Source of the DNA: Escherichia coli
GTDB lineage: Bacteria > Pseudomonadota > Gammaproteobacteria > Enterobacterales > Enterobacteriaceae
Strand: one strand, 5' to 3'
DNA: 64,000 bases
Assembly: GCF_009931435.1 (NCBI RefSeq)
Contig: NZ_CP043414.1
Below, in pieces: positions 53,845 through 56,109 of this stretch. Each line of letters opens with the position of its first letter. Positions within the stretch are counted from its first letter, which is position 1. A program made the position numbers and the translations under genes. The notes below the pieces were generated by a model. It did no database searches and was not told the DNA's origin. It saw only the letters and a list, made by a program, of their open reading frames with translations.

Positions 53845-54270
53845 GTGGCAAAAGTTTTTACACAAGAAGAGCGGGAAAAAATTAAAGGGCAGGTTGTTGA
53901 ACTCGTACGCCAGAGTGGGCGCGAGACGTTACGACAACTGGAAACTAAAACTGGGGCAACAAGATATCTGATGAGCGTTCTGGCCAGAGAGCTGGTTGCC
54001 AGTGGCGATGTATACAACTCTGGTTACGGGTTATTCCCGTCTGAACAGGAGCGTAAGGACTGGCAAAATGCCCGTAAAAAGCTCTCAAGGGCAAAGCTGA
54101 AGAAACCATCTGCGGTTGATCCGGACCTTATCTGGTCATTACCTGACGGAGAAATACGTCGCTACGATAGTTGTCTAAACATAATCTGTCGCGAGTGCCG
54201 GAAGAGCGAAGTTATGCAGCGCATTATGGCATTTTATCAGGGAAATGTTAGGTATTTTAGACGTTACTAG
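53845..54270 (+). CDS. hypothetical protein, GTG start
   Basis: 141-aa ORF. GGAGGG sits 6 nt upstream of GTG. Basic, with a winged-helix-like segment (RYLMSVLARELVASG) and C-terminal cysteines CLNIICRECRKS. No family recognised. Confidence 0.45.
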   Translation: MAKVFTQEEREKIKGQVVELVRQSGRETLRQLETKTGATRYLMSVLARELVASGDVYNSGYGLFPSEQERKDWQNARKKLSRAKLKKPSAVDPDLIWSLPDGEIRRYDSCLNIICRECRKSEVMQRIMAFYQGNVRYFRRY

Positions 54271-54497
54271 ATTAAAGGGCATTAGTTCAGATATGCATTG
54301 ACATTTTCATGGCACAAGGTAGAGCTAGCGTGGTTGTTCGCTTTGTGCCAAGAGTGGTCATTGATAATATTTTGGTGGGTTACATCTGTCAATGTTTCAG
54401 GTGATATGATATACAAATAGCCAGACTTAGACTGGCATGCTGTTTATTTTTATATTATGGGTGTGCCACATGGATTTAAAACTTATTGAGATATGAC

Positions 54498-55523
54498 ATG
54501 GATACTTTTCATAATATTTTGCTTGAGCACATAGACAGCCTTTTAAAAGAGAGACTTGATTTATCTGGTGACGCTGATATCGAAAAAGAAATTAATAACC
54601 TAATTCCCAAAATAGTCATTGTCGTTAAAAAATCTCTTATTGGCTCGGCCAATGCAATGCTTAGAGAACATCGTTCTCTTTGTGATGAATTTGTTGAGAG
54701 AAATATTTCAAGATGGGCAGAGGCTTTTGATTTGCTCGAAACACTTATAGTGATATGCACGGAGTCCGGTGAAGAGTTCAATCGTTCTTATAGACCACAA
54801 GCTGCCTCTGAAGAGGATGTGGTTTTTGATTTAGTCGTTCGGCATCACGCAAGAGCTTGCCACATCGCCAACGAAATTTTGTGTCTCTTAAAGAATGGAT
54901 TTGCAGATGCTGCCCAAGCGAGATGGCGAGCACTTCATGAGGTAGCAGCCACAGCTATGTTTATAGCAAAGCATGGAAAAGAGTGTGCTGAGCGCTTTTA
55001 CTACCATGAAGTGGTTGATTCATATACTGGAATGTTGGAACACAAAAAGTACGAGCACCGGTTAGAAGCAAAAGGTCCAACTATTGAAGAAATAGCTGAG
55101 TGCAAAGTTCAATTTGATCTATTAATAAAAAAATACGGCAAAAAATATGCAGATAATTATGGGTGGGCATCTTATATTTTCCCTAACCATAATAAAGTGG
55201 GGTTTGGAGCTATTGAGAAAGATGTTCAGTTAGAACACATGCGCCCTTATTATAAGTGGGCGAGTCAGAATGTACACACCGGTTCCAAGGCAATGAGAAA
55301 TAGGCTTGGTCTCTGTGAAACTGGTGATGATATATTATTGGTCGGGCAAAGTGATTCAGGAATGGCTGATCCAGCCCATGCTACTGCTATTAGTTTGATG
55401 CAGATTACTGTGACACTTTTATTCTTAAAACCAACCATTGATCATGCCGTCATTTCAAAAATAATACAGGATTATTCTGATGAGATTGGAAATGTATTTC
55501 TTAAAATTGATAAGGGTAATTAA
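54498..55523 (+). CDS. AT-rich orphan protein of unknown function (341 aa from ATG 54498; 345 aa if TTG 54486)
   Basis: Long ORF with GC content visibly far below the surrounding ~50%. Predicted mostly alpha-helical with many His/Arg/Glu. No family recognised by eye. Occupies the prophage hotspot between replication genes and hok. Confidence 0.6.
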   Translation: MDTFHNILLEHIDSLLKERLDLSGDADIEKEINNLIPKIVIVVKKSLIGSANAMLREHRSLCDEFVERNISRWAEAFDLLETLIVICTESGEEFNRSYRPQAASEEDVVFDLVVRHHARACHIANEILCLLKNGFADAAQARWRALHEVAATAMFIAKHGKECAERFYYHEVVDSYTGMLEHKKYEHRLEAKGPTIEEIAECKVQFDLLIKKYGKKYADNYGWASYIFPNHNKVGFGAIEKDVQLEHMRPYYKWASQNVHTGSKAMRNRLGLCETGDDILLVGQSDSGMADPAHATAISLMQITVTLLFLKPTIDHAVISKIIQDYSDEIGNVFLKIDKGN

Positions 55524-55808
55524 AAATTGGAAAAGTGATAGTATATTCTTGTTTTTTTACTGGTAATTAAATGTTTTTAAAGTTACTAGTTCACACCTAT
55601 CGAACGTCCGGTCTTCGCCCAAAGCGGACTAGAAGGTTAGCTTGCGTCGGATTTGGCGTATTTAAAGAATCGCTGGTGGTTACTGGTTGTTGTGTTCCAT
55701 TTCTACAGAACAAAATCACAGAAACTATACCCAATAGTTGTATCTCATCAATGATGAGAGAGCCTCATATTTATCAGGACTGGTGTACGTCCAATACAGG
55801 AGGTTGTC

Positions 55809-55898
55809 GTGCTGGTTCTCAAATGTGCGCTGGCTATTGCAGCTGTAATGGCAATTTATTGTCTTGCTGTTGTTCTTATGGATCGCCTTTCTGATTGA
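55809..55898 (+). CDS. candidate small hydrophobic peptide (29 aa), GTG start with a strong Shine-Dalgarno sequence
   Basis: AGGAGG at 55798-55803, then 5 nt, then GTG. Encodes MLVLKCALAIAAVMAIYCLAVVLMDRLSD, one transmembrane helix plus an acidic tail. Not in the six-frame track (under 60 aa). Confidence 0.35.
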   Translation: MLVLKCALAIAAVMAIYCLAVVLMDRLSD

Positions 55899-56109
55899 TT
55901 TTATATTGGCCAGGTGACGGGAGTTAAGTAGAATGGCTGCGGGTGCTTGAGGCTATCTGTCTCAGGCATGAACACCAAAGGCAGATAGAGAAAAGCCCCA
56001 GTTAACATTACGCGTCCTGCAAGACGCTTAACATTAATCTGAGGCTCAATCTATGAACGGCAAATCTAGGTTAGCCTCTTACGTGCCGAAAGGCAAGGAG
56101 AAGCAGGCT

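Follow-up and report, generated by a model that had tools for sequence, protein, structure and literature searches.

Close counterparts of the locus considered here are found among the single-gene abortive-infection or defence cargoes of prophage and satellite hotspots, including AIPR/AbiH-like proteins, the FRG-domain candidate PDC-S15, GmrSD-like DUF262 proteins and the hotspot cargo of P2 and P4 elements (Rousset et al. 2022, PMC9122126). The locus lies in a stretch of 64,000 nucleotides of Escherichia coli DNA (assembly GCF_009931435.1, contig NZ_CP043414.1; hereafter the window, position 1 being its first letter), and its central gene, at 54498–55523 on the plus strand, encodes a 341-amino-acid protein of the DUF5677 family. 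Like the cargoes just named, this gene stands alone, has a foreign base composition and is one of several alternatives in a single slot, and its homologues occur in P4-like satellites and in integrase islands beside known defence genes; it differs in that neither its sequence nor its fold relates it to any of these, and the family member tested in Enterococcus faecalis was inactive. The DUF5677 family itself is without an assigned function or a solved structure and has almost no literature, and nothing sets the window protein, a full-length and high-scoring match to Pfam DUF5677/PHROG 27456, apart from its family.

The HEPN RNases (Abi_2/AbiD-F, AbiV, RnlA and the HEPN domains of Csm6 and Cas13) share with the DUF5677 protein an all-alpha bundle and one invariant R-x4-H on a core helix. 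The DUF5677 protein differs from them, however, in that no HEPN profile matches it, its motif R-W-R-x-L-H-E is atypical and, at 341 amino acids and about 15 helices, it is much larger than a HEPN domain. By its position the gene is comparable to relBE of the Qin prophage of strain K-12, which is a prophage of the same type and holds relBE in the same slot immediately upstream of hokD. The order at the corresponding place of K-12 Qin is flxA-ydfV-relB-relE-hokD, as the initial annotation of the window had stated; K-12 Qin has neither DUF977 nor the stretch preceding hok, whereas the window prophage keeps the replication module, the DUF977 gene, an open reading frame (ORF) of 29 amino acids and a complete hok/sok/mok locus, and carries the DUF5677 gene.

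The DUF5677 family and its member in the window

The 341-amino-acid gene is genuine and mobile, stands alone and belongs to DUF5677, a widespread and functionally uncharacterised family. Its product scores 118 bits with the Pfam model (PF18928), whose cut-off is 27.1 (E = 5.9e-34, profile positions 3–162 of 166), and matches phrog_27456, of the category 'unknown function', over the full length (positions 1–341 of 341, E = 2e-209), and the RefSeq entry for the identical protein, WP_000379313.1, is named 'DUF5677 domain-containing protein'. The product is therefore not the orphan without a named family for which it had been taken; what does hold is that the Pfam, PADLOC and NCBIfam scans assign it neither to a family with a known function nor to a PADLOC model of a defence system. 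In PADLOC-DB 2.0.0 the protein has no match at E ≤ 1, and scans of all three ORFs of the locus against NCBIfam and PADLOC gave no matches. A panel of 86 diverse homologues, used for both conservation and domain scans, matched DUF5677 in 86/86 cases in the Pfam scan and gave only scattered single weak matches to PADLOC, none of them recurrent. Sequence searches of the PDB with the protein and with a 142-sequence profile returned nothing meaningful.

DUF5677 is a large family: when 1.84 billion representatives of clusters at 50% identity were searched with a profile, 3,537 clusters matched at E ≤ 0.001, of which 1,587 reached E ≤ 1e-30, and the matches are spread over bacteria and archaea. The closest clade consists of proteins of about 341 amino acids with at least 59–60% identity across Enterobacterales, Vibrionaceae, Halomonadaceae, Sulfurovum, Nitrospiraceae and Desulfuromonas, while distant relatives (31–55% identity) are found in Chloroflexota, Planctomycetota, Acidobacteriota, Bacillota, bacteria of the candidate phyla radiation and archaea. 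Many distant relatives have an extra 75–100 amino acids at the N-terminus, and the longer members of the family (P0162, P0187, P0265 and the forms of about 420 amino acids) contain no additional Pfam domain, hence no domain-fusion clue. The distribution of the family is sparse and patchy, tied to mobile elements and without a link to any metabolic operon. A literature search on DUF5677, PF18928, WP_000379313 and DUF977 found two papers that mention DUF5677 but none characterising it, and returned only the RADS preprint and unrelated mentions; enrichment of DUF5677 beside serine recombinases that serve as defence markers has been reported in a preprint (PMC12632615).

The large ORF may begin with TTG at 54486 (345 amino acids) or with an in-frame ATG at 54498 (341 amino acids). 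The ATG is the likely start, because the homologues begin with M-D/E-T-F/L-H and the RefSeq call is also of 341 amino acids. The G+C content (GC) of the ORF is 0.385, and 0.31 at third codon positions (GC3), compared with 0.537 (GC3 0.54) in the replisome-organiser gene, 0.528 in DUF968, 0.469 in DUF977 and 0.483 in the whole window, so the marked AT-richness relative to the neighbours (about 0.47–0.54) that had been noticed at first sight is confirmed. Every Enterobacterales copy of the gene has a GC of 36–39%. The ratio of non-synonymous to synonymous substitution rates (dN/dS) against the copies in other Enterobacterales is 0.12–0.28 and, as judged from these values, the gene is under purifying selection.

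The cassette, its slot and its contexts elsewhere

The locus belongs to a Qin-like lambdoid prophage with the gene order dicB, ydfC, a YdaT-family gene, the replisome organiser, DUF977, the large ORF, hokD, DUF968/ydfU and a Q-type antiterminator. Among 5,426 complete E. coli genomes the DUF5677 gene is present in 72, always at least 99% identical and always between DUF977 and hok. Alignments with prophages that carry other cargo lose similarity at about 54366 on the left and regain it at about 55616 on the right, and at least nine alternative cargoes occupy the slot thus delimited: relBE in K-12; an AIPR-family protein in strain 100181; NUDIX and HAD hydrolases in strain Ec-U11; two hypothetical proteins of 320 and 333 amino acids in strain KGu016; an insertion sequence (IS) element with a DUF262/GmrSD_N protein that has NsnA/PD-T4-2_A-like PADLOC matches; an FRG-domain protein matching the candidate PDC-S15 (E = 1e-98) in phage Tritos; a 449-amino-acid hypothetical protein on the reverse strand in phage mEp460; QueH and a methyltransferase fragment in phage HannyBb; and a regulator with an acetyltransferase in phage Evi. 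With so many different cargoes, the DUF977–hok slot is a genuine variable hotspot rich in conflict-type genes. The low GC and the alternative cargoes bear out the earlier suggestion that the large gene is a moron, acquired horizontally into a variable slot of a Qin-like lambdoid prophage, and the expectation that the slot would elsewhere hold toxin–antitoxin, abortive-infection and defence-type genes is likewise confirmed by relBE, AIPR, FRG/PDC-S15 and the GmrSD-like DUF262 protein.

Two further observations concern the slot itself. The two-gene cargo of KGu016 (L014:1899–3878) has no PADLOC match and shows weak Pfam similarity to HEPN_RES_NTD1 (E = 1.6e-4) and GNAT (E = 8.7e-4); the pair of 320 and 333 amino acids is another uncharacterised candidate of this slot. 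Conserved structured sequence is present at both slot junctions, at 54271–54366 and 55606–55632. The left one, downstream of DUF977, reads GGCACAAGGTAGAGCTAGCGTGGTTGTTCGCTTTGTGCC, and the right one is a hairpin, GTCCG(N14)CGGAC, which is common to prophages with other cargo and to the Providencia island copy of the cassette. These junction sequences could be terminators or preferred recombination junctions for the exchange of cargo.

The gene moves together with some of its surroundings. The copy in Providencia has about 135 nucleotides of upstream and about 100 nucleotides of downstream flank in common with E. coli (about 54361 to about 55630) amid unrelated surroundings, and the Klebsiella copy has the upstream flank in common with E. 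coli. Since these flanks are common to copies in unrelated contexts, the DUF5677 gene travels as a cassette with flanks of its own. In the window this cassette comprises 54361–55632 (plus strand), about 1.25 kilobases with a GC of 0.373 compared with about 0.47–0.54 in the neighbouring genes; both of its boundaries are approximate (left about 54361–54366, right about 55606–55632). A consensus scan places a candidate sigma-70-like promoter, TAGACT-17-TATATT, at 54428–54456 (plus strand), in a region that is kept upstream of the Klebsiella and Providencia copies, and we infer that the cassette may be transcribed from it. Foreign composition, presence or absence at a fixed slot and flanks moving with the gene are the marks of a prophage moron found here; the promoter is assigned by consensus only.

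Close homologues, 69–89% identical, occur in a range of mobile elements. In Klebsiella the gene lies in the equivalent slot of a lambdoid prophage, while in Enterobacter and Serratia it is carried by P4-like satellites with integrase, AlpA, alpha-type primase and Ash/Ogr-Delta genes. Directly downstream of the homologue in the Enterobacter hormaechei satellite (L002:9200–11533) is a gene for a 777-amino-acid protein with a C-terminal SEC-C motif alone, and the supplement of Rousset et al. 2022 (PMC9122126) lists proteins of this SEC-C-only kind among the single-gene cargo found in the P4 hotspots of E. coli. The Providencia homologue directly follows an integrase and stands beside a dCTP-deaminase defence gene (PADLOC dCTPase, E = 1e-168) and a gene for a 2,147-amino-acid NACHT protein. 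In Salmonella the homologue is on a plasmid-like contig and adjoins VapBC, in Pectobacterium it adjoins a ParE module, in Kushneria it is near YoeB/YefM and an FRG protein, and HipA is also among the toxin–antitoxin-type neighbours. More distant homologues are found on plasmids of Spirosoma, Planctomyces, Caulobacter and haloarchaea, and in other phyla the neighbours include transposases, PLD, Mrr, Old and restriction nucleases, HEPN_LA2681, PD-Lambda-1, PsyrA, SoFic and several PADLOC candidate families. The collection of deposited phages contains a homologue in one phage only, the temperate Bacillus phage SPR, and IMG/VR holds 35 viral contigs with a DUF5677 relative.

When the four genes flanking DUF5677 on each side were compared all against all by BLASTP in 80 loci of different species, no recurrent neighbour family emerged: no cluster appeared in more than 4 of the 80 loci and none at position ±1. 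The neighbours vary in size, in strand and orientation and in spacing. As no neighbour family recurs in these loci, DUF5677 is a stand-alone gene without a conserved partner.

Protein architecture and candidate functions

An AlphaFold2 model built from a 41-sequence alignment (mean predicted local distance difference test score, pLDDT, 80.5; predicted template modelling score, pTM, 0.75) is all-alpha with about 15 helices, as the initial annotation had predicted, and residues 254–281 form a low-confidence segment. Foldseek searches of this model against the PDB and against the viral BFVD library returned nothing at E ≤ 0.001. Eight residues are invariant in the 86 homologues (W73, L130, G134, R142, R144, E148, W223 and H260) and a further eight are at least 90% conserved (H117, E126, W143, H147, E240, R249, P250 and S285). 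The description of the protein as rich in His, Arg and Glu is right for histidine (4.7%, which is high) but not for arginine (4.7%, ordinary); glutamate makes up 8.5%. Just two R-x(4-6)-H strings are present. The one that had been cited as an example, R115...H122 in VRHHARACH, is not conserved, H122 being replaced by Q in 50 and by L in 20 of the 86 homologues, and is ruled out as a catalytic motif. The other, R142-W-R-A-L-H147, is conserved, with the Arg in 86/86 and the His in 85/86.

The DUF5677 gene is a reasonable defence candidate, because it is real, mobile and stand-alone and because its slot usually holds anti-phage or toxin genes. We tentatively favour the interpretation that its product is a single-protein effector in phage or mobile-element conflict or defence, while giving it somewhat less than an even chance. 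On this view the lysogen would express the gene, as a moron, from the gene's own promoter, and the protein would act alone, most likely by abortive infection or by some different means of acting against phages. In the conserved all-alpha core of the protein, R142, R144, H147, E148 and H260 would make up a site for catalysis or ligand binding, accompanied by the near-invariant H117, E126, E240 and R249, and the variable N-terminal 60 residues, which are 75–100 amino acids longer in many relatives, may be a regulatory or sensing part. As to chemistry, such a protein would most likely cleave a universal RNA target in a HEPN-like manner, without a metal; of the whole scheme this step is the weakest, and we hold HEPN-like RNase chemistry to be quite improbable. 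In its broadest form, which we regard as doubtful, the proposal would make DUF5677 a new, widespread family of single-protein anti-phage or abortive-infection effectors of bacteria and archaea, having a fold without a PDB or BFVD relative and a new catalytic centre (R-W-R-x-L-H-E with H260), possibly that of a very divergent HEPN-like nuclease, and moving as a promoter-bearing cassette among the hotspots of lambdoid prophages, P4-like satellites, plasmids and islands.

Several observations weigh against this interpretation. Defence sensors usually diverge fast, and DUF5677 is unusually conserved, which fits an ordinary enzyme too. The invariant H260 of the supposed site falls inside the low-confidence part of the model. 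The candidate promoter agrees with the consensus at only 9 of 12 positions. Many of the neighbours in the 80 loci are housekeeping genes, such as those for RtcB, DNA ligase and a tRNA synthetase, and the defence-type neighbours are given as a raw tally. The RNase step is opposed by two findings of its own: hmmscan of the protein and the 86 diverse homologues matched no HEPN or Abi_2 Pfam model, Abi_2 (PF07751) and HEPN_AbiV included, at E ≤ 1, and the residue after R142 is a near-invariant Trp, W143, whereas HEPN motifs usually have a polar residue after the Arg. Finally, a Bacillota DUF5677 ORF cloned in E. faecalis and challenged with six phages was outside the five active candidates of that study (PMC12632615).

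The main rival to a role in conflict is a non-conflict accessory or phage-side function, which we consider rather unlikely: the protein could be a metal-binding or other enzyme, a regulator in lysogenic conversion, an anti-defence factor or a factor in superinfection control. Such a function is favoured by the unusual conservation across phyla, by a pattern of His, Glu and Cys residues that would suit metal binding, and by the negative outcome of the one published test on a DUF5677 ORF. On the other hand, the association of the family is with mobile elements in a sparse and patchy manner and not with any metabolic operon, the gene is also found outside the phage replication cycle, in chromosomal islands, satellites and archaeal plasmids, and the single temperate Bacillus phage is its only occurrence among deposited phages.

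It is improbable that the protein is a true member of the HEPN superfamily, that is, an Abi_2/AbiV-like abortive-infection RNase, probably dimeric, with R142-x4-H147 as its catalytic motif. An up-and-down bundle of four helices, in which the motif opens helix 4 and a composite site forms in the dimer, is the hallmark of HEPN. One defining feature is found in DUF5677, the essentially invariant R142-W-R-A-L-H147, but at E ≤ 1 neither the protein nor its 86 relatives has a HEPN or Abi_2 Pfam match, DUF5677 being the sole recurrent family in that scan of the homologues, and the motif stands in an atypical context, R-W-R-x-L-H-E, in which the Trp after the Arg is joined by the invariant R144 and E148. 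The similarity of the fold to HEPN is generic, and the structure does not discriminate for or against it. HEPN membership is therefore unproven, in view of the missing profile match, the non-discriminating structure and the atypical motif context, though one R-x4-H is present.

There is also a slim chance that the protein is a toxin serving addiction or stabilisation, or a selfish module of some other kind, which maintains a mobile element and is not directed against phages, held in check by an unrecognised RNA antitoxin or by auto-inhibition. Homologues are frequent neighbours of toxin–antitoxin modules and occur on plasmids and satellites, the gene lies here directly upstream of hok/sok, and no protein partner emerges from the 80 loci. 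The cassette, however, is free of tandem and meaningful repeats and of any conserved element resembling a small RNA, Rfam matches nothing in it, the upstream hairpin at 54420–54436 is not conserved in the Klebsiella or Providencia copies, and the gene is readily kept in 72 genomes without a partner. With no meaningful repeats and no Rfam match, the idea of an RNA antitoxin or repeat array in the cassette was rejected. An eight-codon upstream ORF at 54471 is, like the hairpin, not conserved in the Providencia copy.

Flanking genes and the meaning of the cassette

The initial annotation had viewed the large gene, its 141-amino-acid neighbour and a peptide ORF as a candidate system, and all three ORFs are present at the coordinates that it gave. 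The 141-amino-acid ORF (53845–54270, plus strand) starts with GTG and encodes a protein that is basic, as claimed (isoelectric point 9.74), and that matches Pfam DUF977 (99.2 bits, threshold 22.1, E = 2.6e-28) and phrog_142, 'Ren-like exclusion protein' (E = 2.4e-44). The 29-amino-acid ORF (55809–55898, plus strand) also starts with GTG and is preceded by the Shine-Dalgarno sequence AGGAGG-N6. The whole stretch 53800–56300 is covered to at least 80% in the same number of E. coli genomes as carry the DUF5677 gene, 72 of 5,426, whereas the DUF977 segment is found in 4,071 and the segment 55540–55935, which carries the 29-amino-acid ORF, in 1,709. DUF977 adjoins other cargoes in strains KGu016, Ec-U11 and 100181 and in phage Tritos. 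The 29-amino-acid ORF is intact and of the same length in 10/10 sequences compared, including four sequenced phage genomes with other cargo (Tritos, Evi, mEp460 and HannyBb), with 1–4 synonymous and 0–5 conservative changes relative to the window copy. The DUF977 gene and the 29-amino-acid ORF are conserved phage backbone beside many cargoes, not partners of DUF5677.

A three-gene system, in which DUF977, DUF5677 and the peptide would cooperate, for example as regulator, effector and membrane toxin, is suggested by the adjacency of the ORFs on one strand and by the position of DUF5677 between DUF977 and hok in 72/72 carrier E. coli genomes, but it is extremely improbable and is rejected on the co-occurrence data, since the neighbours are present in 4,071 and 1,709 genomes against 72, flank many other cargoes, in sequenced phage genomes too, and are both missing from the homologue loci of Enterobacter, Providencia, Salmonella, Pectobacterium, Serratia, Kushneria and Desulfuromonas, and since no neighbour family recurs in the 80 loci.

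The hydrophobic peptide encoded by the 29-amino-acid ORF, MLVLKCALAIAAVMAIYCLAVVLMDRLSD, has no RefSeq annotation, and the ORF has no Rfam or Pfam match. The ORF (flanks 55617–55940) ends 8 nucleotides before a hok promoter-like site, TTGGCC-17-TAGAAT at 55906–55934, and a promoter-like site on the minus strand (55927–55898, 9/12) could drive an antisense RNA, the sole hint of one here. The ORF may encode a second small membrane peptide or type I toxin beside hok. The hok/sok/mok locus (55941–56265, plus strand) is the right-hand backbone landmark of the slot: the Rfam sok family RF01794 matches at 55941–56115 (110 bits, gathering score 59), a mok-like ORF of 70 amino acids at 56053–56265 overlaps hokD at 56110–56265, and hokD matches Pfam HOK_GEF (E = 6e-22) and is annotated as hokD in RefSeq. 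A terminator-like hairpin follows at 56334–56351. The hok locus of the window prophage is complete, in contrast to K-12, where relE is immediately followed by hokD. Further upstream, between a cro-like regulator and the replisome-organiser gene, a YdaT_toxin-family protein of 141 amino acids (Pfam, E = 7.4e-10) is encoded at 52237–52662 on the plus strand, a placement that matches Rac/Qin-type prophages.

The gene is already catalogued in the DUF5677 family and in RefSeq and lies in a familiar kind of place. If the cassette does not defend against phages, it is an ordinary hypothetical prophage gene with an existing RefSeq annotation; it is a reasonable and cheap-to-test defence candidate and not yet a surprising one. 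The DUF977–hok slot of the Qin/mEp460-type lambdoid phages is documented here as a cargo hotspot, and as several of its at least nine cargoes are uncharacterised, more candidates may be sought in it. Should the cassette prove to defend against phages, this would provide a function for a DUF family of several thousand sequence clusters in bacteria and archaea, in the form of a compact, one-kilobase, single-gene system, possibly with a new fold and a new active site.

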